From Candidatus Shapirobacteria bacterium (GTDB lineage Bacteria > Patescibacteriota > Microgenomatia > UBA12405), in NCBI GenBank assembly GCA_041659325.1, contig JBAZYN010000001.1, positions 494,819 to 558,818 of the forward strand: 64,000 nt of DNA, written 5' to 3'. The translations under genes were made by a program, and so were the position numbers. Below are positions 4,243 through 62,217 of this stretch, piece after piece. The notes under the pieces are model-generated. The model searched no databases, had not been told where the DNA came from, and saw only the letters and a list, made by a program, of their open reading frames with translations. Within the stretch, counting starts at the first letter, position 1; each line of letters opens with the position of its first letter.

Positions 4243-4420
4243 CGTCATTGCGCCTGTCCTTTTACCCGCCGAGGCGGACCTATGGCGGAAAGAGTGGAAC
4301 AAGGTGTCAACCTTACGCCCGTCATTGCGAGGAGCAGTTGTTTAGGCGACGTGGCAATCTTCACGGCAAGAAATATAAAATCGCCACATTCACTTCGTTT
4401 ATTCGCGATAACGTTCAGTA
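4243..4420. repeat. MITE-like repeat family, composite/partial copy A (two CGTCATTGCG heads, CCGCC-N-GGCGG palindrome, GACGTGGCAATCTT module)
   Basis: Shares terminal and internal modules with copies at 16324, 45969, 49920, 53894 and 57290. Confidence 0.45.
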
Positions 4421-4530
4421 TCCCTCCTTTTTTTATCAAAGGAGGGATTAAGGGTAGATTTTAACTAAACAATTTCCCCTCTTTATCCCTGTCCGCCTAT
4501 GGCGGAAAAGAGGGGTTAGGGGAGATTTAA

Positions 4531-10242: not shown

Positions 10243-11181
10243 CTATTTCCGATTTCCGCTATGATATTTCTCGTGTACTTCCCTCAATCTTGCATCTGTT
10301 ACGTGAGTATAAATTTGAGTAGTGGCAATGTTTTTGTGGCCAAGCAATTCCTGAACCGACCGAAGATCAGCCCCGCTTCTTAGAAGATCAGTCGCCATCG
10401 AGTGCCGTAAAGTGTGGGGGGTGGCACCAACCGGTATCTTTGCCTGACGCGTAAATCTTTTTACCATATACTGAATCGCCCTCGAAGACAGCCTGGCTTT
10501 TTCTTCACTGGCCGTAATGTCCTTTCTTTTCTTCAAATTTACAAATAGCGGCCTAAACTTATCGGTCCTGCTTCTCAAATATCTCTCTAAAATCACCTTG
10601 GCCGATTGGGAAATAAAAACCAGTCTGGATCTTCCACCCTTGCCGATTATCCCAAATTCCCTGGTCTTCAAATCAATCTGATCTCGATTCAAAGCCACCA
10701 ATTCCGATACCCGCAATCCGGCCGAAAACAGCAATTCCAAAATCGCCCTGTCCCGCAACCCGGCGGGCGTAGACAACAAAGGTTGGTTAAATAGTCTGGC
10801 TATCTGCTCTCCATTCAAAAACTTCAAAGAGTGTTCGCTGTTTTTTGGGACGTCAATTTTTTCCGGCTGCATCGATTTCAAGTCATTTTTAATTGCCCAC
10901 TTCAAAAAAGCCCGCAAAACTATCACATAATATCCTTGGGTCACACTTTTCAGGTCTCCGTTTAAGCCCGGTTGTCTTGCCAAAAATAATCGAAATTTTC
11001 TTACGCTTTCAGAATTAATATCCGACAGAGTTGGGTATTCAATTTTTAGCTCCTCCCTAAAAAAGGCCTCCAGTTTCCCCAGGTAATGTTTATATTTCAC
11101 CACTGTCAGTCGCGAGCAATTTCTTTCAATTTCCAAATGTTCAATAAATCTCGTAAATAGCGTGATTAAATCATCATTCAT
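10243..11181 (-). CDS. xerC: tyrosine site-specific recombinase, XerC/XerD family
   Basis: C-terminal catalytic motifs [12 protein letters not shown] ... [15 protein letters not shown] (R-H-R-Y tetrad). Confidence 0.85.
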
Positions 11182-11821: not shown

Positions 11822-11856
11822 AATTACCGATTACTGATTACAAATTACTAATTACA
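11822..11856. repeat. tandem heptamer array (GATTACT/GATTACA/AATTACT)
   Basis: 7-nt periodicity immediately 3' of the minus-strand membrane-protein gene. Confidence 0.4.
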
Positions 11857-16249: not shown

Positions 16250-16323
16250 ACCCTATTATAATCTATATTCATCGCACAAATTGCGATCCCTTCATAGCGC
16301 CAAAGAACGAAATTGTATCTGTA

Positions 16324-16477
16324 CGTCATTGCGCTTGTCCGCCTTTGGCGGAAGGAGTAAAACGACGTGGCAATCTTTACAGAATTTGACTATACAAATC
16401 TCTCCACTCCGGGTTAATGCAATTGATTATGTCTAACGTTAAAGATTGCCACAGTCAATCCTTCCTTCGCAATGACG
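16324..16477. mobile_element. MITE-like element copy B (154 bp; TIR CGTCATTGCG / CGCAATGACG)
   Basis: Perfect 10-nt terminal inverted repeats. Internal CCGCCTTTGGCGG palindrome. Inverted GACGTGGCAATCTTT / AAGATTGCCAC modules. Confidence 0.55.
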
Positions 16478-16532
16478 CGAATCATCTGGTGCTCGTTTTT
16501 GGAAAAATTCGAACGCATTTCAAACAAAATTG

Positions 16533-17898: not shown

Positions 17899-17950
17899 TT
17901 TCAAACTCTTCTATTATCTCACGACAAACCCCTAATTTTAAACCCAAAAC

Positions 17951-18014
17951 AATTACTAATTACAGATTACAGATTACTGATTACAGATTACTGATTACAG
18001 ATTACCAATTACCA
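17951..18014. repeat. tandem heptamer array (AATTACT AATTACAG ATTACAG ATTACTG ATTACAG ATTACTG ATTACAG ATTACCA ATTACCA)
   Basis: Nine 7-nt units immediately 3' of dnaB. Confidence 0.6.
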
Positions 18015-33614: not shown

Positions 33615-33646
33615 TTTATTTGAATTCTATAATTTCTAATTACAGA

Positions 33647-33672
33647 TTACTAATTACTGATTACAGTTTACC
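33647..33672. repeat. tandem heptamer array (TAATTACAG ATTACTA ATTACTG ATTACAG)
   Basis: Immediately 3' of recR. Confidence 0.5.
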
Positions 33673-33677
33673 AACTC

Positions 33678-44590: not shown

Positions 44591-45967
44591 ATGGCTAACA
44601 AGAATTTAAACCTATTAAAAACCATTTTCCCTCTTGTCGCCCTGCCATTCATAATCCTGGCCATAAAAACGGTTTTAGATATCCGCAAAGGTGCTGCTGG
44701 TATCCCCGCCGCCATTATCATCGACACCCAAAGTCCTCAGGGTAATATCCCCTCTTCCCTATGGCAAAACATTTCTCAGGGTGGCGAAGAGCCTACCGAT
44801 ATGATTGCTCCTGTTTTATACCAAACCAAGCCCCTCCGGCTCCAACTGATACGAATCGACCACCTATTCGATTACTATCAGGTTTACGCCGGTCCCGGAA
44901 ACTACAACTTCGAAAAGCTCGATCGTATTATAAATAGTATCCTGTCAACCGGCGCCAAGCCGATGCTTTCCGTTTCCTACACCACTTCCTCTATGTCCAA
45001 AAACGGTCAAAACGCCGGCGAGCCATCAGACTGGAACCAATGGTACCAATTAGTCAAGGCCACCGCCAACCGTTATTCCCGGGAAAAAAATATCTCCGGT
45101 ATTTATTACGAAGTCTGGAACGAGCCCGACCTTTTTGGCGGTTGGCACTATGCCAAAAGCCCCGATTACTCCACCCTTTACGTTCAAACTGCCAGAGCAA
45201 TTGTCGACGGTGCCGGCAATTCCGATTACAAAATCGGCGGCCCGGCTACTACCGGCTTTTATGAAAACTGGATTAAATCCTTATTTAAAACGGCCACCGA
45301 AAATCGCCTCCGCCTCAATTTCATCTCCTGGCACAAATATTCCAAAAACATTATCGATTACGAAAAAGACTTTAATAACTTAAACAAAATTTTATCTGAC
45401 TTTCCTCAATATTTCGGCATTGAAAGGATTATCACCGAAACCGGCCCCTCTCCAGAAGCCGACGCCTGGTACGACAATAAGCTTTCCGGAATTCATCTTA
45501 TTTCCCTCTGTACTCAAATGGCCGGCAAAATCCACCGTCTTTTCCCATTTGAACTCGTCGACGGCCCCTCCCCAAGATCCCCAAACTCAACCGGTTGGGG
45601 TATAATCACTCACCACACCAACGGCTCTGTCCCAAAACCCCGCTATTATGCTCTCCAGTTCCTAAACCAACTCCAGGGCCAACGTTTATCCTCAACCGGT
45701 GATGGCAGTTGGGTTACTTCGCTTTCGGCCAAAAATGGCTCAATAATCTCCACCCTATTAGTAAACTACGACAGTTTAAATTTACATCCCGAAACCGTCC
45801 CGGTCACCTTCCGCGGCATTAGCCCCGGCAATTATCGGCTAGTTAGCACCATTTATATGGGCAAAGAAAATTCCAAAAATATAACCGTCCCCTCATTCAA
45901 TTACACCGAAAACGTCTACCTCGAGCCCAATTCTGCCATCATTCTCAAACTCACCCCGCTAAATTAA
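44591..45967 (+). CDS. membrane-anchored clan GH-A glycoside hydrolase (GH39/GH5-like)
   Basis: N-terminal TM. Acid/base box YYEVWNEPDLFGGW and nucleophile box ERIITETGPSP, typical of clan GH-A (beta/alpha)8 hydrolases. Confidence 0.7.
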   Translation: MANKNLNLLKTIFPLVALPFIILAIKTVLDIRKGAAGIPAAIIIDTQSPQGNIPSSLWQNISQGGEEPTDMIAPVLYQTKPLRLQLIRIDHLFDYYQVYAGPGNYNFEKLDRIINSILSTGAKPMLSVSYTTSSMSKNGQNAGEPSDWNQWYQLVKATANRYSREKNISGIYYEVWNEPDLFGGWHYAKSPDYSTLYVQTARAIVDGAGNSDYKIGGPATTGFYENWIKSLFKTATENRLRLNFISWHKYSKNIIDYEKDFNNLNKILSDFPQYFGIERIITETGPSPEADAWYDNKLSGIHLISLCTQMAGKIHRLFPFELVDGPSPRSPNSTGWGIITHHTNGSVPKPRYYALQFLNQLQGQRLSSTGDGSWVTSLSAKNGSIISTLLVNYDSLNLHPETVPVTFRGISPGNYRLVSTIYMGKENSKNITVPSFNYTENVYLEPNSAIILKLTPLN

Positions 45968-45968
45968 G

Positions 45969-46108
45969 CGTCATTGCGATCCGCCAACTGGCGGAGTGGC
46001 AATCCCTGCCTGCCGGCAGGCAATCTTTACAGGATTAAAATAGTCAAGCTGTTTCAAGATTGCGGAGCCTGTCCCGAGAAACGAGGGATCGTTTCTCCTC
46101 GCAATGAC
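45969..46108. mobile_element. MITE-like element copy C (140 bp; TIR CGTCATTGCGA / TCGCAATGAC)
   Basis: Begins 2 nt after the GH stop codon. Internal CCGCCAACTGGCGG, GTGGCAATC and CCTGCCTGCCGGCAGGCAATCTTTAC modules. Confidence 0.55.
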
Positions 46109-46126
46109 AAAACAGTTCTCACTCTT

Positions 46127-46213
46127 AATTCGTAATTAGTAATTAGTAATTTTGGAATTTTATTACAGGTTACAGATTACTTATTACAGATTACCAATTA
46201 CAGGTTACCAATT
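46127..46213. repeat. tandem heptamer array (TAATTCG TAATTAG TAATTAG ... TTACAGG TTACAGA ... ATTACCA ATTACAGG TTACCAA)
   Basis: About 12 units directly 3' of rseP; overlaps its stop codon. Confidence 0.6.
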
Positions 46214-47258
46214 ATTTGAATATCCTCACCACATCACCGGCTGTGATCAAAAATATCAAAAACAACAACACCACCATTCCGAAATTATTAATAGCCGTTT
46301 CAAACTTTTGGTTGACCCGTTTTCTGAAAATCATTTCATAAACCACAAAGATTATCCTTCCTCCGTCCAAAGCCGGAAAAGGTAAAATATTTACCACCGC
46401 CAAATTTACAGATACTATCGCAAAAAAATGTACCACCGCCAACATCCCCTGGTTTTGTTTGATACTACTTGTCGCCTGAAACATCCCAATTGGCCCGCTC
46501 ACATCTTTTGGCACTCTGCCCTGAAATAGTTCACTCACCATGCCGATCACTCCGCTTCCAATAATTTTTCCCCAATAATAAGCCTCTCGAAAACCAGCCC
46601 CAATCCCTTTATGTATCTCATACCACTTCATTGGCACCATTTCCGTGTTAGATACCGTCACCCCCATTCCGCCCTCACCTGCCGGAGGATTTTCCCTTAC
46701 AAAAACTTTTACTTCTCTTTCGACTTTTAGACTTTCGACTTCTAGACTAATTTCTTGTCCCTTATATTTTGCCACTTCATCTGTCATCTCTCTTGCGCTA
46801 AAAACCGGTTTACCCTCAACTTCGACCACCGAATCTCCTTCTTTAAGCCCTGCCATTTCCGCCGGGCTACCCCCGGTAATTCCTATTATCTTCACCACCT
46901 TTATATCCGTCGGCACACCGGAAACGGAATAAACAAACGAAAAAATCGCTATTGCCAAAACCAGATTCATCAACACTCCCCCCAAAACCACCATCATCTT
47001 CTGCCACGGTTTTTTATTATTAAACGCCACCCCACCCTTTCCGTCTCCATCTTCGCCATACAATTTACAAAACCCTCCGATCGGCAGCCAATTCAAACTA
47101 AAAATTGTTCCGCCAAATTTTTTCCCCACGATTCTCGGTGGCAAACCCAATCCAAATTCTTCCACCTTTACCCCGGTTTTAATCGCCGCAAAATAATGGC
47201 CAAACTCATGAACCAAAACCAAAATAGAAAGCGCAATTATAAAAATTAAAATATCCAT
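46212..47258 (-). CDS. rseP: RIP metalloprotease RseP (site-2 protease) with PDZ domain
   Basis: HEFGHYFAA HExxH motif in TM1, PDZ domain, C-terminal LDG motif. Contains an in-frame 30-nt CTTTCGACTTTTAGA x2 repeat. Confidence 0.9.
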   Translation of the reverse strand: MDILIFIIALSILVLVHEFGHYFAAIKTGVKVEEFGLGLPPRIVGKKFGGTIFSLNWLPIGGFCKLYGEDGDGKGGVAFNNKKPWQKMMVVLGGVLMNLVLAIAIFSFVYSVSGVPTDIKVVKIIGITGGSPAEMAGLKEGDSVVEVEGKPVFSAREMTDEVAKYKGQEISLEVESLKVEREVKVFVRENPPAGEGGMGVTVSNTEMVPMKWYEIHKGIGAGFREAYYWGKIIGSGVIGMVSELFQGRVPKDVSGPIGMFQATSSIKQNQGMLAVVHFFAIVSVNLAVVNILPFPALDGGRIIFVVYEMIFRKRVNQKFETAINNFGMVVLLFLIFLITAGDVVRIFK

Positions 47259-47399: not shown

Positions 47400-47705
47400 C
47401 TATTTTAGATCTTTTGCTAACAAAATAAAATTTTGAACTTCCTTTAGCGATCCTCTTGCTTGAAAATAGAATTTAATTTTATCATTAAAATGATATCTAC
47501 CAAATCCCTCTGCTATATTAGCACTAATTGAGCTCGCAGCCCTCCTTAGCTGATCACAAACTCCATATTTCTCAACTCGAGGGAACTTATCCAATATTTT
47601 ATAAACAGAAATCACCAAGGCGTGTGATTCCTTCCATGAATTTAAATCATAAAAATCCAATATTCTCCCCATCTTCCTATCACATTCTACCAGTTTGATT
47701 ACCAA
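47400..47705 (-). CDS. four-helix-bundle protein (23S rRNA intervening-sequence protein family)
   Basis: KFPRVEKYGVCDQLRRAASSISANIAEGFGRY ... ARGSLKEVQNFILLAKDL is the signature of the TIGR02436-type family. Confidence 0.75.
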   Translation of the reverse strand: MVIKLVECDRKMGRILDFYDLNSWKESHALVISVYKILDKFPRVEKYGVCDQLRRAASSISANIAEGFGRYHFNDKIKFYFQARGSLKEVQNFILLAKDLK

Positions 47706-47770
47706 TTACAGGTTACCAATTACAGGTTACCAATTACAGGTTACCAATTACTGATTACTGATTACTGATT
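47697..47770. repeat. tandem heptamer array (GATTACC AATTACAGG TTACCAA TTACAGG ... ATTACTG ATTACTG ATTACTG)
   Basis: About 10 units between frr (3' end) and the four-helix-bundle gene start. Confidence 0.65.
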
Positions 47771-48322
47771 TTATCCCCTTATCTCCCCTTCCTTCTTACT
47801 GGCCACCATTTCCAATTTCTCAATATATTGGTCAGTCACCTTTTGCAACTCTGCCTCATCTACCTTAAATTCATCCTCGGAAACTGTTTTTTCTTGCTTT
47901 GCCGACTGTAATTCTTTCCGGAAATCTGCCCGGGCATCCCGGATCATCACTCTCGCCGCTTCAAGTTTCCTCCCCAAGATTTTTATATAATCCTCTCTTT
48001 GTTCTGTTGTTAGCATCGGCAAGCCCATCCGGATTATTTGCCCGTCAACTGCCGGGTTCATGCCAATATTGGCCGCCGCAATCCCATTGGCAATTTCCTT
48101 TACCAAAGTCCCATCCCACGGTTGAAAAGTCAATGTTCTTACGTCGGGCACTCCAATCGATCCAAGCTCAATCAGTCTCATTTTTTGTCCGCCATACACA
48201 GTTACCACCACATTCTCTATCAACCCCGGCGTTGCCCTGCCGGTCCGAATCGATGAAATATCATCAACAAAAATTCCTACAATCTTATCCATTCTCGCTT
48301 TTACGTTTGGGATATTTATCAT
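47771..48322 (-). CDS. frr: ribosome recycling factor
   Basis: Full-length RRF pattern (MINIPNVKARMDK ... VRTGRATPGLIENVVV ... MGLP). Confidence 0.92.
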   Translation of the reverse strand: MINIPNVKARMDKIVGIFVDDISSIRTGRATPGLIENVVVTVYGGQKMRLIELGSIGVPDVRTLTFQPWDGTLVKEIANGIAAANIGMNPAVDGQIIRMGLPMLTTEQREDYIKILGRKLEAARVMIRDARADFRKELQSAKQEKTVSEDEFKVDEAELQKVTDQYIEKLEMVASKKEGEIRG

Positions 48323-48341: not shown

Positions 48342-48379
48342 AATTACCAGTTACAGATTACAGATTACAGGTTACCAAT
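48342..48379. repeat. tandem heptamer array (AATTACC AGTTACAG ATTACAG ATTACAGG TTACCAA)
   Basis: Directly 3' of tsf. Confidence 0.55.
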
Positions 48380-48838
48380 CTATATCTCAAATCTACCAAT
48401 TCTTCCAAGTTTTATATTCTCCCCAAATTTTGCCACCAGTGCTTTTATCAGATCCGATACGGTTTTGGACGGATCCTTAATAAAATCCTGTTTTAGCAAA
48501 GCCTTTGCATCTTTGGGATTCATCGCCGCCACCTGCAAACACAAATCCTTTGCCAGGGCCATATATTCTTCATTTTTTGCCACAAAATCAGTCTCACACA
48601 ATAGTTCCACCATTACCCCGATTTTACCGGTTGCATGAGTATAAGTGGCCACCCTGCCCTGATGAGTTTCCCTATCGGCCTTTTTCTCCGCCTTTTGAAA
48701 TCCTTTTTCTTTCAATATTTCTCTTGCCTTCGACTCGTTGCCCTCGGCCTCTTCCAGAGCCGCCTTAATTTCCATCATTCCTAATCCCAATTCTTCCCTC
48801 AATTTTTTAACTAGCTCAATTAATTTTTTAGTCTCCAT
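48380..48838 (-). CDS. tsf: elongation factor Ts (short form)
   Basis: UBA-like N-terminus LVKKLREELGLGMMEIKAALEEAEGN and TDFVAKNEEY core. Confidence 0.85.
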   Translation of the reverse strand: METKKLIELVKKLREELGLGMMEIKAALEEAEGNESKAREILKEKGFQKAEKKADRETHQGRVATYTHATGKIGVMVELLCETDFVAKNEEYMALAKDLCLQVAAMNPKDAKALLKQDFIKDPSKTVSDLIKALVAKFGENIKLGRIGRFEI

Positions 48839-48861: not shown

Positions 48862-48897
48862 CAATTACAGATTACTGATTACAGATTACTGATTACC
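48862..48897. repeat. tandem heptamer array (AATTACAG ATTACTG ATTACAG ATTACTG ATTACCA)
   Basis: Directly 3' of rpsB. Confidence 0.55.
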
Positions 48898-49919: not shown

Positions 49920-50010
49920 CGTCATTGTGTCTGCCCGTTTACCCGCCTTTGGAGGGAGAATCCTCGACGCTAATCGGGACGACGTGGCAATCTTTCGGCT
50001 CTTGCCGTCT
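49920..50010. repeat. MITE-like family, partial copy D (CGTCATTGTG head, CCGCCTTTGGAGGG, GACGTGGCAATCTTT)
   Basis: 5' modules present; no matching 3' inverted repeat; followed by the perfect hairpin GAGACACCCCGCGGGGTGTCTC. Confidence 0.4.
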
Positions 50011-50602
50011 GGATTTTCCTTGTAGAGACACCCCGCGGGGTGTCTCAATACAAAAATAAAAAAAAGGTGAATTGAAAAAAACAACAACCCAGGAAAACAC
50101 AAAAAACAAAAACAAAACAAAAAAAATAAAAAAACGTAACCCCATGGTTACTAACAAAGGGGGCATTCCCCTTTGCTTTTTCTTTTTTCTTTTTTTTCTT
50201 ACCATCCCTCGGGGTGGGCCATAGAAGACAGCGATGTCCTCTGATCTTTTTCGGCCCACCCCGAGAACCCCTTACACCGGGGCTACGACTGGCGTGTGAA
50301 AGGGCCGCCGCAATTGGGGTATGCCTTCACGCACCCACTCCTCAGACGGTTGCACTGCGAGCAGAAACTCGACTTGTTACCCACCACCAGCAGAATCAGA
50401 AAAGACAAAAGACGTTCCACGTCGCCTCCTTTGGGCAGTCATAAAAAACCCATGGAACCCCACGGTGAAAACAACGCGACACGCTATTTTTTTAAAAATT
50501 AAGAACCTAACTCTCACACAATCATATTCGCTTCTCCTCTCTAAATAGAATCAACCAATCCACCAAAAGATGAACTCGTTGATCCCATTTAAAAAGGGTT
50601 TA

Positions 50603-50650
50603 ACTACAGATTACAAGTTACAGGTTACCAATTACTGATTACCAATTACC
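50603..50650. repeat. tandem heptamer array (CTACAG ATTACAAG TTACAGG TTACCAA TTACTGA TTACCAA TTACC)
   Basis: Lies inside the ORF-poor 1.8-kb region. Confidence 0.55.
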
Positions 50651-51595
50651 AAAATTTTTTCCTGGGTTGTTAACGAACAGGAACGTTTAAACGACATTTG
50701 TCGTTTATTACGTTCAGGACAGGAACAAAATCATCTCAAAACCGCATTGGTTCCTAATAATTTTGTTACGAAAAACAATCCGATTATATCACACTATACT
50801 AGTCCTTGTCCCTGGGGACACTATTCCCCACAAAACCTTCTTCCCTAGGTCCATATCGCTTCAACCATCGCCCCAACTTGGCCGTCCTCTTTAACCCTTC
50901 GGCTCTTTCCTCTGGACTTTCCCTGGCAACAACTACAACTGCCGGTGGTATCTCTTCCGCCACTGTTACCATAACTTCCCTTGCTTTTGCCCCCAATCCG
51001 GGCATTGGCATCTGAATCGTCAGGGCCTCCAACGTTTTTCCCATTAACCTATTTTAATCCATATTTAAAAAATAAAAACAACAAGACAACTCAAAACACC
51101 AAAAAACAAACAAAGTGGAGTGACCACCATCGTGCATGGTCACCCCACCCGTTGTCTTCGCCCTCGGCGATCTTTGGGACTTACCCAATGACCGCCGATA
51201 TTAGCGACAGAAAACCCCAGCTAGCCAACGCGGTGGGGATCAGGACAAACAAAAGGCAAAACCCCCCACCCTCCGAAGCAGGCTGGTCGTCGTTCTTCTG
51301 CGTAGCCGCTAGCTGAAAGAAGGACAATGCCGCACAAAGTGCGAGCAAAGAGCTAGCCGCAACCCACCTGATTTTCATCTTCATGCGATTTTCCTTTCTG
51401 GCCAATGGCCATGAGTTGTCTTGTTGTCAACGAACCAGTCTTCAGCAAACCGCCGCTTACAGATATAAATCTTTGGCAATCTGCTAAAACTATATCTTAT
51501 AATATCACATATCATCGAAAAATACAACAATATATTTACATAACAGACAAAATCATAAACCCTGTTTCCGTCCAATATTAGTGTAAAATCAAACT

Positions 51596-53872
51596 ATGCC
51601 CGACAGTGTTCAAAGCCAGTTCACCATTCTTGAAATCCGTCTGCCACAAAACAACGAATACACTCTGGAGTCTATGTCCTCTCTTTTTTCCAATTTCACC
51701 CAATTTTCCAGTCTTGGATTTTTCGAGAAACTCCTCGGCAAAAAGAAAACTATTGCCTCAATTGAAATCGCCCTGATAAACGGCCAGATTAGATTTTTTG
51801 TCGTCACCAACACCCGTGACGCCGATTTTTTCCGGGCCCAAATTTTAGCCCAATACCCCACTGCCATCACCCGCAACCCCGATGATTATCTAACCCCTTT
51901 TTTAGTCGGGTCGCACTGCCCCGTTACCCCAGGCCAAGATTCCACTCCAAAAACAGAAATAACCCCCCAGCGCCTCAGTTTCATCCAGCTTGGTCTTTCC
52001 CGCATGTCTGATTACCCTCTAAAAATCGCCAAAGACTTTCGCGATACCGATCCTCTAAATTCCATCCTGGCCCCGCTCTCCCGATCAAACAGCCGCGATG
52101 ATTTTTTCCTCTATCAAATAATTCTTTCCTCCGCCCCCAAAAACTGGCAGGGTCCAATTATCGACGTTATTCAAAACGGCACGGTAGTCGACAAAGAAAA
52201 AGGCTATCACCAAGCTCATCCCGACAAAGCCGTCTTTGAGCAAAAAATCCAGTTCCCCGGGCTTCTGGCCCAAATCAATCTTTTCTCCAATAATCCCGGG
52301 TTAATTACCGGCGTTTCCTCCTCCTTTGGCATCTACACCAGCCCCCGCGGTAATCTTATCAAAACCTTTACCCCTGGTTTTTTTCACAAAAATAAACTCC
52401 CAACCGCAATATTCTCCAGGGAAATCAAAAAAGGTCTCAAAACTCAGATTCTAAACACCGAGGAACTCGCTGCCCTCTGCCATTTTCCCAATAAACTCAC
52501 AAAACTTCCTAACATCGCCTGGGGCAAAAAACTTTATGCCGAACCCCCGGAAAATCTCCCCATAATCGAAGGTCTCTCCGAAGAAGAAAAAAACAAAATT
52601 ACCGTTTTCGGTCGCACAGAATTCCGCAACAAAGACGCCATTTTTGGTATCAAAGAGGGGGAAGACCGTCGCCGCCATACCTATATTATCGGTAAATCCG
52701 GTACCGGAAAAACCACCCTCATTGCCAACATGGCCATTGATGACATCAGAAAAGGCCGTGGCGTCGCTATCATCGACCCTCACGGTGATCTTTGCAACAC
52801 CATTCTTGACTATATTCCCAGCAACCGCATCAACGACTGTTGTTATTTCAACCCCGCCGATCCGGAATACGTCTACCCGTTAAATGTTCTCGAGGCCAAA
52901 AACGAGTCCCAAAAAGAATTAGTCGCTTCCGGTGTCCTCTCCATCTTCAAAAAACTCTATGGTACTGTTTCCTGGGGACCGCGTCTCGAGCACATCCTCA
53001 GAAACACCGTCCTGACTCTTGTAAATACTCCCGACTCCAACCTAACCCATGTTATCGAAATCTTAACCAACAGAAACTATCGAAATCGGGTTATTGAAAA
53101 GTTAAACAATCAAACTCTCAAAAACTTCTGGCTCAACGAATTTGACCGAATGGACCCAAAATTCCAAAACGAAGCCATTGCCCCGGTTCTAAACAAAGTC
53201 GGTCAGTTCATTTCCTCCACCAAAATCAGAAACACTCTTGCCCACTCCAAATCAAAAGTCGATATTCAAAGCATCATGGACCAAAAAAAGATCCTTATAG
53301 CCGATCTCTCCACTGGCCGCCTCGGAGAAGACAATTCATCTCTTCTAGGCGCTATGTTAATCACCCAAATCCAGCTTTCCGCCATGAACCGTGTTTTTCA
53401 AACGGTAGAAGAAAGATCTGATTTCTATCTTTACGTCGACGAATTTCAAAACTTTGCCACAGAAGCTTTCATCAAAATCCTCTCCGAAGCCCGTAAATTT
53501 AAGCTTAATCTAATCGTCGCCAATCAATACATGAACCAGTTGGAACGTCCGATTCAGGATGCTATTTTCGGCAACGTCGGTTCCCTTATCTCCTTTGTCG
53601 TTGGCAACCAGGATGCCGCTATCCTCCAAAAAGAATTCGGAGCCGAGTTCCCCTCAGATGACCTTGTGAAACTTGGTAGATATCAGGTCATTTGCCGTCT
53701 CTCCATTGACTCAGAAACAACCCAGCCTTTTTATTCCAACACCCTTCCGCCGCTCCTGTGCAAAAATCAGCATCGCGATAAAGTAATTAGAACTTCCCAG
53801 GAAAGATGGGGCAAAAAACTAAAAGACGCCTTTCCCCCACCCAATTCCCTGCCAGTCATTCCACAACCCTAA
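51596..53872 (+). CDS. P-loop ATPase of the VirB4/VirD4(TraG/TrwB) type IV secretion or conjugation family, no TM segments, 350-aa unknown N-terminal domain
   Basis: Walker A IIGKSGTGKTT, then IDPHGD. Walker B LYVDEFQNF. Family-typical ARKFKLNLIVANQYMNQL (RK...Q..QL) box. Confidence 0.6.
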   Translation: MPDSVQSQFTILEIRLPQNNEYTLESMSSLFSNFTQFSSLGFFEKLLGKKKTIASIEIALINGQIRFFVVTNTRDADFFRAQILAQYPTAITRNPDDYLTPFLVGSHCPVTPGQDSTPKTEITPQRLSFIQLGLSRMSDYPLKIAKDFRDTDPLNSILAPLSRSNSRDDFFLYQIILSSAPKNWQGPIIDVIQNGTVVDKEKGYHQAHPDKAVFEQKIQFPGLLAQINLFSNNPGLITGVSSSFGIYTSPRGNLIKTFTPGFFHKNKLPTAIFSREIKKGLKTQILNTEELAALCHFPNKLTKLPNIAWGKKLYAEPPENLPIIEGLSEEEKNKITVFGRTEFRNKDAIFGIKEGEDRRRHTYIIGKSGTGKTTLIANMAIDDIRKGRGVAIIDPHGDLCNTILDYIPSNRINDCCYFNPADPEYVYPLNVLEAKNESQKELVASGVLSIFKKLYGTVSWGPRLEHILRNTVLTLVNTPDSNLTHVIEILTNRNYRNRVIEKLNNQTLKNFWLNEFDRMDPKFQNEAIAPVLNKVGQFISSTKIRNTLAHSKSKVDIQSIMDQKKILIADLSTGRLGEDNSSLLGAMLITQIQLSAMNRVFQTVEERSDFYLYVDEFQNFATEAFIKILSEARKFKLNLIVANQYMNQLERPIQDAIFGNVGSLISFVVGNQDAAILQKEFGAEFPSDDLVKLGRYQVICRLSIDSETTQPFYSNTLPPLLCKNQHRDKVIRTSQERWGKKLKDAFPPPNSLPVIPQP

Positions 53873-53893
53873 GGTTTTTCCACCCCGCTAGTT

Positions 53894-54000
53894 CGTCATT
53901 ACGATCCGCCAACTGGCGGAGTGGCAATCATTACAAGACTTAGTTAGTCAAGTTGTTTCAGAATTACTTCTCCCGACGTAACGTCGGGATCGCAATGACG
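53894..54000. mobile_element. MITE-like element copy E (107 bp; TIR CGTCATTACGATC / GATCGCAATGACG)
   Basis: Fills the convergent gap between the ATPase gene and topA. Contains CCGCCAACTGGCGGAGTGGCAATC and a CCCGACGTAACGTCGGG hairpin. Confidence 0.55.
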
Positions 54001-54004
54001 GGTT

Positions 54005-56044
54005 TTAAGGTTTCTTCCACCCTGCCCACTTACACTCCGGATATTTCGAGCAGCCATAAAATTTCTTGCCGCTCCGGGTTCTCTTTATTACCACCGGCGC
54101 CCCACACGTCGGACAGTCAAATCCGGCCACTTCCTGATACTGTTTAGTATACCTACACTCCGGAAACCGGCTACAAGAAATAAACTTCCCGAATTTCCCC
54201 AGTCTAATAACCAGCTCCCCCTCCTTACACTCCGGACATTTTTCCCCCAATTTTTCCGTCTCCACCTTCACTCTCTCTGCCCCGGCTTCGGCTATTTTTA
54301 CATCCTTCTCAAATCTGTTCCAAAATGTTTTCATCATTTTTTTCCAATCCAATTTTCCCGCCGCAATTTTGTCCAAATTACCCTCCATGTCAGCCGTAAA
54401 CGGCAACGACAAAACTTCAGAAAAATTCCTTACCAAAAATTCATTGGCCGCCTTGCCCAATGCTGTTGGGATAAATTTCCCCTCATCCTTTTCCACATAC
54501 TGTCGAATCTGAATAGTCGAGATAATCGGCGCATAAGTACTTGGTCGCCCGATTCCCTGTTTTTCCAGGCTCGATACCAAACTTGCCTCGGTATATCTTG
54601 GCGGTGGGTTAGTTTCCGACTCCTCAAACCATATCTTTGTAGCCGAAATCATCTCTCCTTCTTTTAAAGCCGGCAATATCTGATCTTCAAATTTCTCTCC
54701 ATTAATCTTCAAAAACCCATCAAAAATCATCCTTACTCCTTTTGACTGAAACAGACCGCCTCCGTCTCGCAGATTAACCACCGTACTTCCTGTTATCGCC
54801 GCTGCCCCCTGTGTTGCCACTGCCCGTTTCCAAATCATTTGGTATAGTCTATTCTCCCTCGGGTCTGCATCCGCCAGTTCTGTCCTATTTACGTCTGTCG
54901 GCCTGATAGCCTCATGCGCCTCCTGGGCATTCTTGGCCGTATTTTTATAGTACCTGATCTTTGCCGATATATACTTTTCTCCGTATGTTTTGCCGATATA
55001 TTTTCTGAAATCATTTATCGTTTTTTCGGCAATATAGACCGAATCAGTCCGATGGTATGTTATAAAGCCTCTTTCAAACAATCTTTGCGCCACACTCATT
55101 GTCGTTTTCCCTGGCCATCCAAACCTCCTGGCCGCTGCCTGTTGAAGTTTTGATGTTGTAAAAGCCGGCAGCGGCGTTCTGTTAATTTCTTTCTCTGTTA
55201 CTTTCTCGACCACCATTTGGTTTGATAGGTCATTCACGAATTTCGTCACCTTCTGCCTATCCTCAAAAATCGACTTGGTAAAAGAATAAACCCCGTCAAA
55301 TAGTTTGATCTTTTCCGTTTTAAACGCCGACTTTTCTTCCACCTTTATCAGATCAGCGTCAAACTTTTCCCTCCCCTTTTTCAATTCCGCCAATACCTTA
55401 AAAAACACTTCTTTTTTAAATGCCTCAATCTCTTTTTCCCTTTCGCACACCAGTCTCACCGCCACCGACTGCACCCGCCCACCGGACAAACCTCTCCTTA
55501 CTTTTCTCCACAAAACCGGAGATAAAGTATAACCCACCACCCGGTCAAGAATCCTTCTCCCCTGCTGCGCGTTTACCAAATCCATATCCACCGCCCGTGC
55601 TTTTCCCATCGCATCAGAAATTGCGTCCTTAGTAATTTCATGAAATGTTATTCTGCTGATATCAAGCTTCTTTCCCACTTTCAAACTTTCAGACTTTCCC
55701 ACTTTCAGACTTTTAGACTTTAAGACTTTTGACTCATCTGGATGCGTCAGCAACCACTCCACATGCCACGATATTGCTTCCCCTTCCCGATCCGGATCTG
55801 TCGCCAACAATACTCTTTTAACTCTGGCCGCAGTTCTAATAAGGTCCTCTACCACATTTTTTTTCTTGGGATCGATCTTGTAATCCGGCTCAAAACCGTG
55901 TTTAATATCCACCGACATCTTATTCCCCGGCAAATCTCTCAAATGACCCACGGTCGCAATCACCTCAAAATCTTTTCCCAAATATTTCCCTATAGTTTTC
56001 GCTTTCGTCGGCGATTCCACTACCAATAAACTCTTGTCTCCCAT
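54005..56044 (-). CDS. topA: DNA topoisomerase I with C-terminal zinc ribbons
   Basis: Toprim N-terminus LLVVESPTKAKTIGKYLG ... GHLRDL, active-site Tyr region, several C4 ribbons (CPECKEG ... CSRFPEC; CPTCGA ... CSKYPEC). Carries an in-frame SLKVGK low-complexity repeat insertion. Confidence 0.95.
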   Translation of the reverse strand: MGDKSLLVVESPTKAKTIGKYLGKDFEVIATVGHLRDLPGNKMSVDIKHGFEPDYKIDPKKKNVVEDLIRTAARVKRVLLATDPDREGEAISWHVEWLLTHPDESKVLKSKSLKVGKSESLKVGKKLDISRITFHEITKDAISDAMGKARAVDMDLVNAQQGRRILDRVVGYTLSPVLWRKVRRGLSGGRVQSVAVRLVCEREKEIEAFKKEVFFKVLAELKKGREKFDADLIKVEEKSAFKTEKIKLFDGVYSFTKSIFEDRQKVTKFVNDLSNQMVVEKVTEKEINRTPLPAFTTSKLQQAAARRFGWPGKTTMSVAQRLFERGFITYHRTDSVYIAEKTINDFRKYIGKTYGEKYISAKIRYYKNTAKNAQEAHEAIRPTDVNRTELADADPRENRLYQMIWKRAVATQGAAAITGSTVVNLRDGGGLFQSKGVRMIFDGFLKINGEKFEDQILPALKEGEMISATKIWFEESETNPPPRYTEASLVSSLEKQGIGRPSTYAPIISTIQIRQYVEKDEGKFIPTALGKAANEFLVRNFSEVLSLPFTADMEGNLDKIAAGKLDWKKMMKTFWNRFEKDVKIAEAGAERVKVETEKLGEKCPECKEGELVIRLGKFGKFISCSRFPECRYTKQYQEVAGFDCPTCGAPVVIKRTRSGKKFYGCSKYPECKWAGWKKP

Positions 56045-56057
56045 GTTTATAAAATTT

Positions 56058-56178
56058 ATTTACTAAATTACTAATTACAGACTTGCCTGCCGGTAGGCAG
56101 GTTACCAGTTACTGATTACAGATTACCAGTTACCGGTTACAGATTACCATTTACCAATTACTGATTACCAGTTACAAG
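56058..56178. repeat. long tandem heptamer array with embedded palindrome GACTTGCCTGCCGGTAGGCAGGTTAC
   Basis: About 15 heptamer units (ATTACTA ATTACAG ... TTACTGA TTACAGA TTACCAG ...) between the 133-aa gene and the topA start. Confidence 0.6.
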
Positions 56179-56626: not shown

Positions 56627-57295
56627 CTACAATCCTTCTAAATCTTCAATCCCCGTTACAATATTCGCCCCGTTTTTAATCAGATAATTTGGCGCTGCCG
56701 AATTGGTATCTGTCATTCTCCCTGGCACTGCCCATACCTCCCGCCCCTGCTCCGCCGCCAGCCTTGCTGTTACCAAAGTTCCGCTTCTTTTCGACCCCTC
56801 AATTACCACTACCCCCCTCGAGATTCCGGAAATTATTCTGTTTCTTGCCAAAAATTTTTCCGGGGCCGGCAATACTCCGTTTGCATATTCTGAAACTATC
56901 AACCCTCCACTAGCCAAAATCAATTCATAAAGCCACTTATTCGACCTCGGGCTAACCACGTCCACTCCCGAAGCCAAAACCGCAATTGTTTTCCCGCCCC
57001 TCTCAGTACAAACCCTTTGCACTTGAGCATCTACCCCAAAGGCCATCCCCGACACTACCACAATCCCGGTTCTGACCAGTTCCGGAACTAGCTTTTCCAC
57101 CACTTCTTTCCCGTATTCACTGATATTTCTGCTCCCCACCACCGCCAGGGCTTTCTTTTCTCTTAGCAACTCCGTATTCCCAAGACAATACAGTCTATCG
57201 GGGCAATCCGGTATCTGCCGCAGTAAATACGGAAAACTGTCACTATCTTTACAAATTACTTTTATTTCCACTCCTAAATCATATACTAACGTCAT
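56627..57295 (-). CDS. dprA: DNA processing protein DprA (Rossmann-fold core only)
   Basis: ALAVVGSRNISEYG ... VVSGMAFGVDAQ ... IISGISRGVVVIEGSKRSGTL DprA core motifs. The ATG start lies inside the CGTCATTGCG head of MITE copy F. Confidence 0.85.
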   Translation of the reverse strand: MTLVYDLGVEIKVICKDSDSFPYLLRQIPDCPDRLYCLGNTELLREKKALAVVGSRNISEYGKEVVEKLVPELVRTGIVVVSGMAFGVDAQVQRVCTERGGKTIAVLASGVDVVSPRSNKWLYELILASGGLIVSEYANGVLPAPEKFLARNRIISGISRGVVVIEGSKRSGTLVTARLAAEQGREVWAVPGRMTDTNSAAPNYLIKNGANIVTGIEDLEGL

Positions 57296-57362
57296 TGCGA
57301 TCCGCCAACTGGCGGAGTGGCAATCTTTTCTAGTCCTCCCTTCTTCAAGGGAGGGAATTAAA
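57290..57362. repeat. MITE-like family, partial copy F (CGTCATTGCGATCCGCCAACTGGCGGAGTGGCAATC plus a CCTCCC ... GGGAGG hairpin)
   Basis: The first 36 nt match copies C and E almost exactly; no 3' TIR found. Confidence 0.4.
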
Positions 57363-57385
57363 GGGTGGGTTTTAATTTAATTAAA

Positions 57386-57457
57386 ATTACAGATTACAGA
57401 TTACAGACCTGCCTGCCGGTTTACCCGCCGTGGTGGGCAGGCAGGTTACAAATTACA
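57386..57457. repeat. tandem heptamer array with embedded palindrome CCTGCCTGCCGG ... GGGCAGGCAGG
   Basis: AATTACAG ATTACAG ATTACAG then palindrome then TTACAAA TTACATT; overlaps the PBP2 stop codon. Confidence 0.6.
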
Positions 57458-60246: not shown

Positions 60247-62217
60247 ATGAAATTAATACCCAGGGCAATTATTTTTTGCTACCTCCTGCTTTTCTTTTTC
60301 ACCCCCCTGATTTTCACCTCCTTTAATTCAGAGCTGTTCGAATTACCCAAAACTTACTTTGTTTTTGCCATTACTATACTTGTTCTTTCCCTTCATTTAA
60401 TCAATCATTTTGTCAACGCCACTCCCCTCTATCGCCGCAGCTTCCTGGACATCCCTTTTGCACTATTTCTACTCTCCCAAGCCATTTCCACCATTATTTC
60501 CATCGATCCCCACACCTCTCTTTGGGGCTATTATTCCCGAATGAACGGCGGGCTTTTATCCACCGTCTCATATCTCACCCTTTTCTGGGTTTTCAATGTT
60601 TACCTCACCGATTCTCTAAAAAACAAGCTAGTCCACACTGCCCTGATTTCCGGATTAATAGTCTCTGTGTACGGAATTTTGCAGCATTTCGGTATCGACA
60701 AACACCTCTGGATTCAGGATGTCCAAAACCGGGTTTTCTCCACCCTCGGCCAACCAAATTGGTTGGCCGCCTATCTTTGTATCCTTATCCCTTTTGCCAT
60801 TTTGAAATTTCTTAATTCCAAATCAAAGTTACAGTTTACTGTTTACAGTTTACTGATTACCGTTTTTTATCTGTGTCTCCTTTTTACCAAATCCAAATCA
60901 GGTATTCTTGCCGCCATCATCACCATCTCTCTCTTTCTTATTATCTATTCCCAAAAAACAAAAAAAATTCTATTACCGATTATCGTTTCCGGCTTAGTGA
61001 TTATTTTTCTTTTTACCGTCAACAATCCCATTCAAAATCGCCTTTCCCCCTCCTCCCCCCAAACTCCCTCAGCCCTGTCAGAGGTTACCGCCGACACTAA
61101 TATTACTGCCTCAGAAGATATCAGAAAAATTGTCTGGCAAGGTGCCTTTGACCTCTGGAAACGTTTCCCCGTCCTTGGCACCGGAGTAGAAACTTTTGCC
61201 TATTCTTATTACTGGACCAGGCCGACCTCTCATAATCTCACCTCCGAGTGGGACTTTCTCTACAACAAAGCCCACAACGAATATTTAAACTACCTCGCTA
61301 CTACCGGCGCTCTAGGCTTACTTGCCTACCTCCTCATCATTTTCACCGTTCTCAAAAAATTAATCCCTAATCACCAATCCGATATAGAAAACCTGGCTAT
61401 CCTCTCCGGCTTCTCCGCCATTTTGATCACCAATGCCGCCGGTTTTACCGTCGTTGTCTCATCTTTATTTTTCTTCCTTCTTCCCGCCCTCATCAAAATC
61501 CCGCCACAGGTTATTACTCCAAAAGCCAAACTAAAAGATAATTTTTTTACCATTCCCCTTGTCATTTTTACCCTAATCTGTGGCAGCTATCTTTTCAACA
61601 CCATTACCGCCTATTATCTAGCCGATATCGCCTTCGCCCAATCCGAAAATACCGATGCCGACCAAGAGCCTCAAACTGCCTATGACTACATCGGCGCCGC
61701 CATTAAATTTCGACCCACCGAGCCCTTGTACCAAAGCAAGATGTCTACCATCGCCGTCAAACTCGCTTCCATCGACAAACAATCGCAAGACAACAACATC
61801 AAGATCGCCCTGGCCGCTTCTGACAAATCCGTTGCCGATTCTCCGGCCAATGTTAACTTTTGGAAAGAACGAGCCCAAATGTTTATTTACCTGTCCACCA
61901 TCGATTCAAAATATTTTACCGACTCCATCGAGTCCCTTCTCTCCGCCTCCCGTCTTGCTCCCACCGATGCCAAAATTTTTTATCTTATCGGTCGTTTTTA
62001 TCTTACTGCCGGCCAAACTCCAGAGGCCCTTTTGTACTTTCAAAAAGCCATCGACCAAAAACCAAACTATGATTTTGCCTATTTTGATATGGGGAAAATT
62101 TATTTGGATCAGAAAGACTATCAAAAAGCCAAAGAATCATTTGAAACCACCCTAAAAATCGCCCCAAAAAACACCGACGCCCAAAATTACCTTGATCAAA
62201 TCAACCTCCTTGACTAG
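60247..62217 (+). CDS. O-antigen ligase (Wzy_C) family membrane protein with C-terminal TPR repeats
   Basis: About 10 TM helices. Periplasmic loop WQGAFDLWKRFPVLGTGVETF ... NKAHNEYLNYL matches Wzy_C. C-terminal TPR-like helices. Contains an in-frame heptamer stretch at 60828-60865. Confidence 0.7.
   Translation: MKLIPRAIIFCYLLLFFFTPLIFTSFNSELFELPKTYFVFAITILVLSLHLINHFVNATPLYRRSFLDIPFALFLLSQAISTIISIDPHTSLWGYYSRMNGGLLSTVSYLTLFWVFNVYLTDSLKNKLVHTALISGLIVSVYGILQHFGIDKHLWIQDVQNRVFSTLGQPNWLAAYLCILIPFAILKFLNSKSKLQFTVYSLLITVFYLCLLFTKSKSGILAAIITISLFLIIYSQKTKKILLPIIVSGLVIIFLFTVNNPIQNRLSPSSPQTPSALSEVTADTNITASEDIRKIVWQGAFDLWKRFPVLGTGVETFAYSYYWTRPTSHNLTSEWDFLYNKAHNEYLNYLATTGALGLLAYLLIIFTVLKKLIPNHQSDIENLAILSGFSAILITNAAGFTVVVSSLFFFLLPALIKIPPQVITPKAKLKDNFFTIPLVIFTLICGSYLFNTITAYYLADIAFAQSENTDADQEPQTAYDYIGAAIKFRPTEPLYQSKMSTIAVKLASIDKQSQDNNIKIALAASDKSVADSPANVNFWKERAQMFIYLSTIDSKYFTDSIESLLSASRLAPTDAKIFYLIGRFYLTAGQTPEALLYFQKAIDQKPNYDFAYFDMGKIYLDQKDYQKAKESFETTLKIAPKNTDAQNYLDQINLLD

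Follow-up and report, generated by a model that had tools for sequence, protein, structure and literature searches.

Repeats and Genes in the Window

The window, by which the whole 64-kb stretch of DNA analysed here is meant, holds a set of short palindromic repeats in its intergenic gaps. An earlier note on this DNA had placed two of them behind a glycoside-hydrolase gene and in the convergent gap before topA, and this context is borne out: copy B starts 1 nt past the stop codon of a GH39-family gene (ORF end 45967), and copy C occupies the 132 nt that separate two convergent genes, a HerA-like gene (ends 53872) and topA (ends 54005). The note had described three complete copies with perfect terminal inverted repeats (TIRs) of 9-10 nt. 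This is correct for copy A (16324-16477), whose ends CGTCATTGCG and CGCAATGACG pair perfectly over 10 nt (10/10), but not for copy B (45969-46109), in which CGTCATTGCG and CGCAATGACA are complementary at 9/10 and the true right end is 46109 rather than 46108, nor for copy C (53894-54000), where one internal mismatch makes the ends CGTCATTACG and CGCAATGACG imperfect. The partial or composite copies at 4243-4420, 49920-50010 and 57290-57362 are present, and the sub-motifs GTGGCAATC, TCCGCC-N4-GGCGGA and CCTGCCTGCCGGCAGG, reported as shared internal modules, were located in the window at the places given for them.

The real unit of these repeats is a hairpin module of 35-70 nt and not a 140-nt MITE. 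The "complete copies" are pairs of such modules in inverted orientation (dimers), 107-154 nt in size, which begin 1-22 nt past stop codons, have tags that point outward and enclose spacers of ~32-68 nt; modules also stand alone at 57290-57325, 4320-4359 and 49920-49992. The individual features, with the scores of a covariance model (CM) described below, are as follows:

4320-4359, + strand: single module with a poorly paired inner region (CM match 4317-4362, 44.3 bits, seed member; fold z = -0.6)
16324-16375, + strand: copy A left module, long form CGTCATTGCG-CTTGTCCGCCTTTGGCGGAAGGAGTAAAACGAC-GTGGCAATC (from sequence; CM match 16321-16378, 22.8 bits, E 4.5e-4)
16377-16430, - strand: copy A spacer, 3'-end remnant of an ssn (GIY-YIG) gene, ...DIINCINPEWRDLYSQIL (Ssn HMM match and motif NP.W.DL)
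16444-16477, - strand: copy A right module, short form with a weak inner stem (CM match 16441-16480, 40.4 bits, seed member)
45969-46004, + strand: copy B left module, canonical, 36 nt: CGTC ATTGC GA TCCGCC AACT GGCGGA GTG GCAAT C (CM 51.6 bits, seed member)
46005-46024, no strand assigned: nested palindrome CCTGCCTGCCGGCAGG in copy B, then a second (G)GCAATC (from sequence)
46025-46059, - strand: copy B spacer, in which only the junction ..ATCCTGTAA-AG-ATTGCC is common to copy A (direct sequence comparison)
46060-46109, - strand: copy B right module with the long inner stem GGAGAAACGATCCCTCGTTTCTC (CM match 46055-46112, 19.7 bits, E 0.003; fold z = -3.05)
49920-49992, + strand: long degenerate module CGTCATTGTG ... 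CGACGTGGCAATC upstream of rpsB (from sequence, pattern match; CM just 10.6 bits, E about 1)
53870-53885, no strand assigned: left copy of a ~18-nt direct repeat around copy C, TAAGGTTT(T/C)T(T)CCACCC; the right copy, 54006-54022, is the 3' end of topA
53894-53929, + strand: copy C left module, canonical with one outer-stem mismatch (CM match 53891-53932, 35.4 bits, E 1.6e-7; not in the seed)
53962-54000, - strand: copy C right module with a degenerate outer stem and the inner stem CCCGACGTTACGTCGGG (CM match 53959-54003, 18.3 bits, E 0.007; fold z = -2.8)
57290-57325, + strand: single canonical module (module D) in the dprA leader, ~20 nt upstream of the likely GTG start (CM 51.5 bits, seed member)

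Ahead of the single module at 4320-4359 lie an orphan CGTCATTGCG head (4243-4252) and an insert containing TTTACCCGCC. Palindromes related to CCTGCCTGCCGGCAGG were also seen at 56082-56101 and 57408-57445.

With at most one mismatch, CGTCATTGCG is matched 11 times in the 64-kb window, while 2.40 +/- 1.59 matches are expected from 100 dinucleotide shuffles of the window, none of which (0/100) reaches 11. This over-representation and the eight modules recovered by the CM uphold the description of a genuine interspersed, non-autonomous, intergenic family of modular palindromes. The accompanying statement that no transposase is encoded in the window also holds, as a scan of 58 window ORFs found no transposase Pfam family, Y1_Tnp and OrfB_IS605 being likewise without a match. 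The window does encode a Xer-like tyrosine recombinase at 10243-11181. The Rfam search of the window at gathering thresholds returned tRNA alone, and a permissive search of 45900-46250 gave chance-level matches; BLASTN with the whole 141-nt copy B found no match in PLSDB plasmids or INPHARED phages, and a literature search by repeat DNA strings and translated peptides brought up nothing relevant. A replication strand bias of the single modules was considered in view of their shared + orientation and a strongly negative GC skew, and this idea was dropped because n = 3-4.

Module Architecture, Folding and Covariation

The module has the layout 5'-CGTC / ATTGC / GA / variable stem-loop / GTG / GCAAT / C-3', i.e., a 5-bp outer stem, a GA/GTG internal loop and a variable inner stem of 4-9 bp, with the halves of the outer stem lying 10-59 nt apart. 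Every head in the window has the tag CGTC, and TGTC is seen at one right end. Neither GTC nor the trailing C varies among the eight window modules at E<0.01 or in the module alignment, for whose non-window members the search pattern had set them in part. The "TIR" is not a transposase-binding end; it consists of the CGTC tag and the outer stem belonging to a hairpin that is complete in itself and also occurs singly.

Folding had been proposed as a check of the hairpin model and supports it: as single-stranded DNA (ssDNA), the canonical module is predicted to fold into exactly the bipartite hairpin, and the composites give fold z-scores of -6.8, -4.4 and -6.0 against shuffles. The inner stems of the modules at 4320, 16444 and 49920 are poor in ssDNA folding, and these modules may be dead. 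The CM, seeded with an alignment of 45 sequences (41 modules of other origin and four from the window), detects eight window modules at E<0.01, four of which were not in the seed, namely 53891-53932(+), 16321-16378(+), 46055-46112(-) and 53959-54003(-).

The inner helix varies in sequence while its pairing is kept. In the 45-sequence alignment, 94.3% of the inner-helix cells are paired, compared with 26-58% when the 3' partner is slid, and double-change cells number 100, compared with 34.5 +/- 4.1 in shuffles. Among 194 unique inner regions, defined as those with a GA...GNN loop, a perfect inner stem of at least 4 bp is present in 80, which comprise 21 distinct stem sequences, and after shuffling in 2/194. 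The outer stem ATTGC/GCAAT is found in 45/45 aligned modules and in the window copies. Since the search pattern demanded it of the non-window sequences, its invariance there is uninformative. Compensatory outer stems do occur elsewhere, as ATTCC/GGAAT in a Clostridia MAG and as ATTCT/AGAAT and ATCCT/AGGAT in Planktothrix.

CGTC-Tagged REPs and Ssn-Related Motifs

Two published groups of repeats resemble these modules. CGTC-tagged REPs were defined by Di Nocera, De Gregorio and Rocco (BMC Genomics 2013; PMC3733652) as the families CGTC-1 to CGTC-4, which include Neisseria dRS3 and Rickettsia RPE-4 and RPE-6. They are marked by an unpaired CGTC (or TGTC/CCTC) tag, A-T/T-A first pairs and a short tail, occur mostly as inverted (HH) dimers with spacers of 20-100 bp in intergenic positions near ORF 3' ends, "apparently lack a dedicated transposase" and flank no RAYT or IS200 gene (PMC3733652). 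Ssn-related motifs (SRM) were described together with the Ssn ssDNA nucleases (Chenal et al., Nat Commun 2025; PMC11893778). The prototype SRM is the Neisseria Transformation Sequence (NTS), CGTCATTCCCGCGMAVGCGGGAATCYRG, which with its relatives flanks ssnA, and SsnA, with 94 aa and a single GIY-YIG domain, binds the hairpin as ssDNA only and cuts it a few nucleotides upstream; binding of RNA by Ssn was not seen in vitro (PMC11893778). Binding depends most on the C right after the palindrome, and cleavage on the three bases ahead of it (PMC11893778). An SRM lies close to 71% of the ssnA homologues, and 42% are enclosed by SRM on either side; the SRM-ssnA-SRM arrangement resembles an insertion sequence, and in Neisseria the Ssn system restricts transformation by NTS-bearing DNA (PMC11893778).

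The window repeats carry the defining marks of both CGTC-tagged REPs (PMC3733652) and SRM (PMC11893778), and the family is therefore not "previously undescribed", as the earlier note had claimed. The published SRM string HGTCWYN(0-2)YYVSBRHN(0-5)WNVSBRGN(0-2)RNCYNB, implemented from the Methods text of PMC11893778, has 0 matches in the window and recovers 1/314 modules of this type, while the same implementation matches the Neisseria NTS.

Occurrence Outside the Window and Association With Small GIY-YIG Genes

An exact scan of IMG/VR with the pattern CGTCATTGCG-N10-40-GTGGCAATC yielded 113 contigs, many of them multi-copy and some with tandem arrays, and module loci were also found in Bacteroidota, Verrucomicrobiota, Clostridia and Ignavibacteria. 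The 35-mer of the copy B left module recurs unchanged at loci L114, L115, L116 and L121-L123. Only three species-representative genomes and three metagenome contigs contain the window-specific 26-mer ATCCGCCAACTGGCGGAGTGGCAATC. The genes between module pairs in viral contigs were considered as partners of the repeats and rejected, being ordinary phage genes (e.g., Mu-like A and B).

In 2/3 of the genomes with ATCCGCCAACTGGCGGAGTGGCAATC, a Verrucomicrobiota MAG and a Pelobium MAG, the 26-mer adjoins an ORF of 81-97 aa that has modules on both sides, and both ORFs encode GIY-YIG domain proteins (PF01541, E 2.5e-17 and 4.5e-17), for which NCBIfam holds no specific model. A profile made from these two proteins retrieved 5,857 protein clusters at E <= 1e-10, many of them on very short contigs. 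In 9/9 non-viral loci examined, the small GIY-YIG gene has a local CGTC-type hairpin on both sides. In five of these nine the hairpin is the ATTGC/GCAAT type of the window, namely Verrucomicrobiota (L114), Pelobium (L115), Pedobacter psychrophilus (L124), a Clostridia MAG (10 contigs, L125-L134) and Ignavibacteria (L135/L136), and in the other four each locus has its own CGTC variant, namely N. gonorrhoeae (L137), Novosphingobium aromaticivorans pNL2 (L138), Planktothrix agardhii (L139) and Sinorhizobium meliloti (L140). The Ignavibacteria unit consists of module(+), 17 nt, the gene, and module(-) abutting the stop codon; this unit is located within an ABC-transporter operon.

The flanks of the N. 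gonorrhoeae gene are dRS3/NTS. The Pelobium protein shares 40% identity over its full length (91 residues, E 1e-22) with the 94-aa N. gonorrhoeae GIY-YIG ORF. Judging by the length of this ORF and the NTS/dRS3 on either side of it, it is taken as the SsnA orthologue. Since Ssn and SRM have already been published (PMC11893778), the GIY-YIG association found here is a rediscovery. Four viral GIY-YIG relatives (42-46% identity) that were examined have no modules, and the 113 module-bearing viral contigs have no ssn; module and ssn therefore need not occur close together. Neither the 64-kb window nor the 2.6 kb upstream of it, the latter read from a 7.8-kb Logan contig identical to the left end of the window, contains an intact ssn gene.

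An ssn Remnant in Copy A

An HMM built from 120 Ssn homologues was searched against every six-frame fragment of the window, and its sole match lies in the spacer of copy A, on the minus strand, reading ...DIINCINPEWRDLYSQIL-stop. The match corresponds to HMM positions 79-95 of 97 and spans 17 residues (E 0.026 among 1785 fragments). The motif NP.W.DL, present in 44/120 Ssn homologues and usually located 4-9 residues ahead of the stop, occurs once in the six frames of the 64 kb, at 16395-16415. Because an Ssn-like C-terminus is combined with a stop codon (TAA, 16377-16379) spaced by 1 nt from the left module, which is the position seen in intact cassettes, the copy A spacer is identified as the last ~17 codons of an ssn gene, and the dimer as a gene-deleted cassette.

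The junction ..CTGTAA-AG-ATTGCC.., at which the end of ssn meets the module, is all that copies B and C keep in common with copy A. The copy B spacer gives no match to the Ssn HMM, and a search of the dimer spacers of other loci found no ssn remnants; the shared junction is the one feature suggesting that copies B and C, too, may derive from an ssn cassette.

Empty Sites in Close Relatives

TopA from the window matches, at 100% identity, a protein of a Candidatus Shapirobacteria MAG encoded on a contig of 573,898 bp. Contigs L142 and L143 from relatives are syntenic with the window at 76-82% nucleotide identity, with the gene order PBP-dprA-topA-HerA-like, and have no modules across 14 kb. They provide the empty sites that the earlier note had proposed to look for. 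Where dimer C lies in the window, topA and its convergent neighbour have a few bases in common in L142/L143, and the ~18-nt direct repeat beside dimer C, which restores both gene ends, is present there as a single copy at the gene overlap. Likewise, neither module D nor the adjoining CCTGCC palindrome is present in the dprA leader of L143. Because the sites are empty in two relatives, insertion is regarded as recent, and the elements were most likely gained in intergenic gaps after the split from these close relatives, as judged from the aligned contigs.

The ~18-nt repeat is confined to copy C. At copies A and B, even the best flanking repeats do not exceed what is expected by chance (p about 0.8 and 0.5), and insertion of the element was therefore unlike that of a DDE transposon. 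A consistent target-site duplication, as the label MITE in the earlier note would imply, was not found.

Proposed Explanation and Alternatives

The repeats are probably hairpins of the CGTC-tagged REP / SRM kind, i.e., recognition sites of Ssn-family GIY-YIG ssDNA nucleases, in a CPR genome. By analogy with SsnA and the NTS of N. meningitidis (PMC11893778), a module would fold into its hairpin when the DNA is single-stranded, and Ssn would bind it and nick the DNA 5' of the tag, at a distance of a few nucleotides; the window modules may have been processed in this way by an Ssn that is, or once was, resident. The ancestral unit would be a cassette of module(+), ssn gene and module(-), from which loss of the gene would leave inverted module pairs. 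In a module(+)...module(-) unit, one nick would fall just beyond each end, the two being on opposite strands, and this would be favourable to excising or copying the entire unit; spread might be Ssn-dependent. A bolder version is rather doubtful. It would make the ATTGC/GCAAT hairpin a distinct, cross-phylum class of Ssn site missed by SRM searches, CGTC dimers internally deleted hairpin-ssn-hairpin cassettes, and Ssn the long-sought enzyme that mobilises CGTC REPs, active even in reduced CPR genomes.

Inverted hairpin pairs with a spacer, in intergenic positions and without target-site duplication, are REPIN-like, and the composites fold as long hairpins, as would be expected of REP/REPIN-type elements moved by a Y1 HUH transposase (RAYT or IS200/IS605 TnpA) or guided by TnpB. 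However, the tag is CGTC and not GTAG, CGTC repeats flank no RAYT/IS200 gene (PMC3733652), the enclosed gene in all nine non-viral loci is a GIY-YIG Ssn homologue, the 58 window ORFs lack Y1_Tnp and OrfB_IS605 Pfam matches, and the coding remnant in copy A is Ssn-like, all of which makes such an origin very unlikely. From the resemblance to IS200/IS605 or REP elements suggested in the earlier note, the REP-like part can thus be retained, while a partner from IS200/IS605, RAYT or TnpB cannot, since the flanked gene is GIY-YIG. The chances are equally slim for a classical MITE, i.e., an internally deleted insertion sequence (IS) of a DDE transposase whose 9-10 nt TIRs are bound by the transposase in trans. 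It would explain the inverted 9-10 nt ends in three copies of 107-154 nt and the empty sites in relatives, but copies A and B have no target-site duplication and the repeat at copy C restores two overlapping gene ends, the "TIR" is also found on single self-contained hairpins (57290, 4320, 49920), and the same termini occur in many phyla around hypervariable interiors. Moreover, no DDE transposase was seen beside modules in ~1 Mb of loci, in few of which the ORFs were read, and the Mu-like genes found between modules in L076 and L100 belong to phages.

Another view holds that the repeats are structural elements that serve the host and are not currently mobile, either as stabilisers or terminators of mRNA 3' ends or as marks for uptake or recombination of transforming ssDNA. 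Modules lie 1-22 nt past stop codons or in gene leaders, as REPs do (PMC3733652), one of them is directly upstream of dprA, and the Neisseria motif restricts transformation through Ssn (PMC11893778). On the other hand, the orthologous sites in close relatives are without modules, which are therefore not conserved regulatory parts of those genes; furthermore, the hairpins are not followed by a T-run, and Ssn does not bind RNA in vitro (PMC11893778). As the whole explanation such a function is unlikely, yet a host-serving role is compatible with recognition by Ssn as a secondary use and the two are not exclusive. Chance similarity, or local duplication of one intergenic segment, can practically be dismissed. 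The copies seen from this genome do all lie within the 64 kb searched, but the 11 CGTCATTGCG matches stand against 2.4 expected, flanks and interiors differ between copies, an identical 35-mer is present in unrelated phyla, and hundreds of homologous modules exist elsewhere.

Implications

The Candidatus Shapirobacteria (CPR) genome is added to the putative hosts of the Ssn/SRM system. Its module form, with a bipartite structure and a hypervariable inner stem, escapes the published search string, and surveys of SRM abundance may therefore undercount. The sequence of copy A is direct evidence that inverted REP dimers can be ssn cassettes minus their gene, and the recent gain of the elements together with this gene-deleted cassette bears on how CGTC REPs spread and on whether Ssn mobilises them. 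For biotechnology, each new pair of hairpin and Ssn is a candidate specificity of a site-specific ssDNA nuclease (PMC11893778). For annotation, it is of practical concern that the modules yield spurious ORFs (e.g., ...SLRG..., ...LAMT, ...ARND...) and can mimic start codons, as the ATG at 57293-57295 does for dprA.

Comparison With Known Systems

REPINs/BIMEs and the REPtrons of RAYT (TnpA-REP) share with the present elements the inverted REP doublet with a spacer, the enzyme gene between its own repeats, the lack of target-site duplication and the recognition of ssDNA hairpins. They differ in their GTAG tag and Y1 HUH transposase, whereas the combination here is CGTC and a GIY-YIG nuclease, and no Y1 gene was found between modules in the loci examined. 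IS-derived MITEs are similarly short, non-autonomous and intergenic, have terminal inverted repeats and arise by internal deletion of a protein-coding parent, as copy A has done. In contrast to MITEs, the parent here would be a nuclease and not a demonstrated transposase, the ends are independent hairpin modules, and there is no regular target-site duplication.

The CGTC-tagged REPs agree with the window repeats in the unpaired CGTC/TGTC tag, the A-T/T-A first pairs, the short 3' tail and the lack of a transposase, and also in occurring mainly as inverted dimers with spacers of 20-100 bp near gene 3' ends. Their stem is simple, has 8-9 bp and closes a loop of 4-5 nt, while the hairpin here is bipartite, has an internal loop and varies in length, and the phyla reported in 2013 did not include Patescibacteria. 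With SRM, the modules have in common a palindrome with AT as its first bases, preceded immediately by (C)GTC and followed immediately by an invariant C, and a directional hairpin in many copies that flanks genes for ~95-aa GIY-YIG proteins homologous to SsnA on both sides. They differ from SRM in the ATTGC/GCAAT outer stem, the GA/GTG loop, the hypervariable second stem and the length (35-70 nt, compared with 28 nt), and also in the host, a CPR bacterium whose window holds gene-less derivatives only, known from sequence alone. Taken together, the window repeats present themselves as a variant, bipartite form within the CGTC-REP/SRM kind and outside any one described family. What is new here is the host phylum, a hairpin variant missed by the published string, one gene-deleted cassette and clear empty sites.

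Sequence neighborhood of the hairpin modules

The window comprises a core replication and recombination neighborhood (gyrB, gyrA, a Xer-like recombinase, dnaB, ssb, recR, dnaX, topA and dprA), in which the minus strand holds 41 of the 69 ORFs and GC skew is strongly negative throughout (-0.12 to -0.41; 1-64000). All single modules in the window lie on the plus strand, a number too small for interpretation. Many short intergenic gaps are filled by a tandemly repeated 7-nt unit (ATTACAG, ATTACTG or GTTACCA, with variants; families D1-D3), and a second palindrome family, CCTGCC(TGCC)...GGCAGG(CAGG), is also present.

Other repeats in the window
11823-11854, 17946-18012, 33632-33677, 46124-46215, 47685-47771, 48343-48380: 7-nt tandem arrays
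48864-48895, 50597-50655, 56088-56174, 57380-57405, 60828-60859: 7-nt tandem arrays, continued
46005-46020, 56082-56101, 57408-57445; also 4253-4270, 49930-49947: CCTGCC-family palindromes
4423-4466, 57336-57378: CCCTCC..GGAGGG-ATTAA(A)GGGTRGRTTTTAA motif, common to both sites

One CCTGCC-family palindrome sits inside copy B, the inverted module pair at 45969-46109, between the duplicated (G)GCAATC, and one contains the core TTTACCCGCC, which recurs within two long modules, at 4243 and 49920. The CCCTCC..GGAGGG motif lies immediately downstream of two single modules. In the syntenic relative L143, the orthologous dprA leader also holds a similar 7-nt array, hence the arrays are conserved across relatives, whereas the hairpin modules are not; the palindrome at 57408 is likewise missing from the orthologous site of L143.

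The ATG that opens the longest dprA ORF lies inside a module (CGCAATGACG, minus strand; 57290-57299 and 57267-57295), while alignment with L143 suggests that the true start is a GTG at ~57269, which is preceded by AGGAG. Modules can thus create false N-terminal extensions.

Modules in viral contigs and ssn cassettes

Modules are commonly carried by predicted viral contigs in IMG/VR (L001-L113), for example at 1694-2922 in L076, 784-2081 in L100, 11383-11521 in L003 and 692-842 in L084. Among these contigs, the module is found between the Mu-like transposase genes A and B, and there are tandem arrays in which it repeats every 54 or 41 nt. None of the 113 contigs carries an ssn gene in the flanks that were retrieved.

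Ssn homologs matched by the profile search are often located on contigs of only 500-1200 nt, which fits with assemblies breaking at the flanking repeats, and ssn cassettes (module-ssn-module) may therefore be under-represented in MAGs.

An identical 35-mer across phyla

Modules otherwise have hypervariable inner stems, yet one exact 35-mer, GTCATTGCGATCCGCCAACTGGCGGAGTGGCAATC, occurs not only in the CPR bacterium but also in a Verrucomicrobiota MAG, in two Sphingobacteriales and on three metagenome contigs.

Occurrences of the 35-mer
45970-46004 and 57291-57325: window
53895-53929: window, with 1 mismatch
1050-1084: L114 (Verrucomicrobiota MAG)
6778-6812: L115 (Pelobium MAG)
2483-2517: L116
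L121-L123: also present

The Ssn proteins adjoining the 35-mer in L114 and L115 share only 44% identity. The identity of the 35-mer across phyla could be explained by horizontal transfer or by a favored cognate site.
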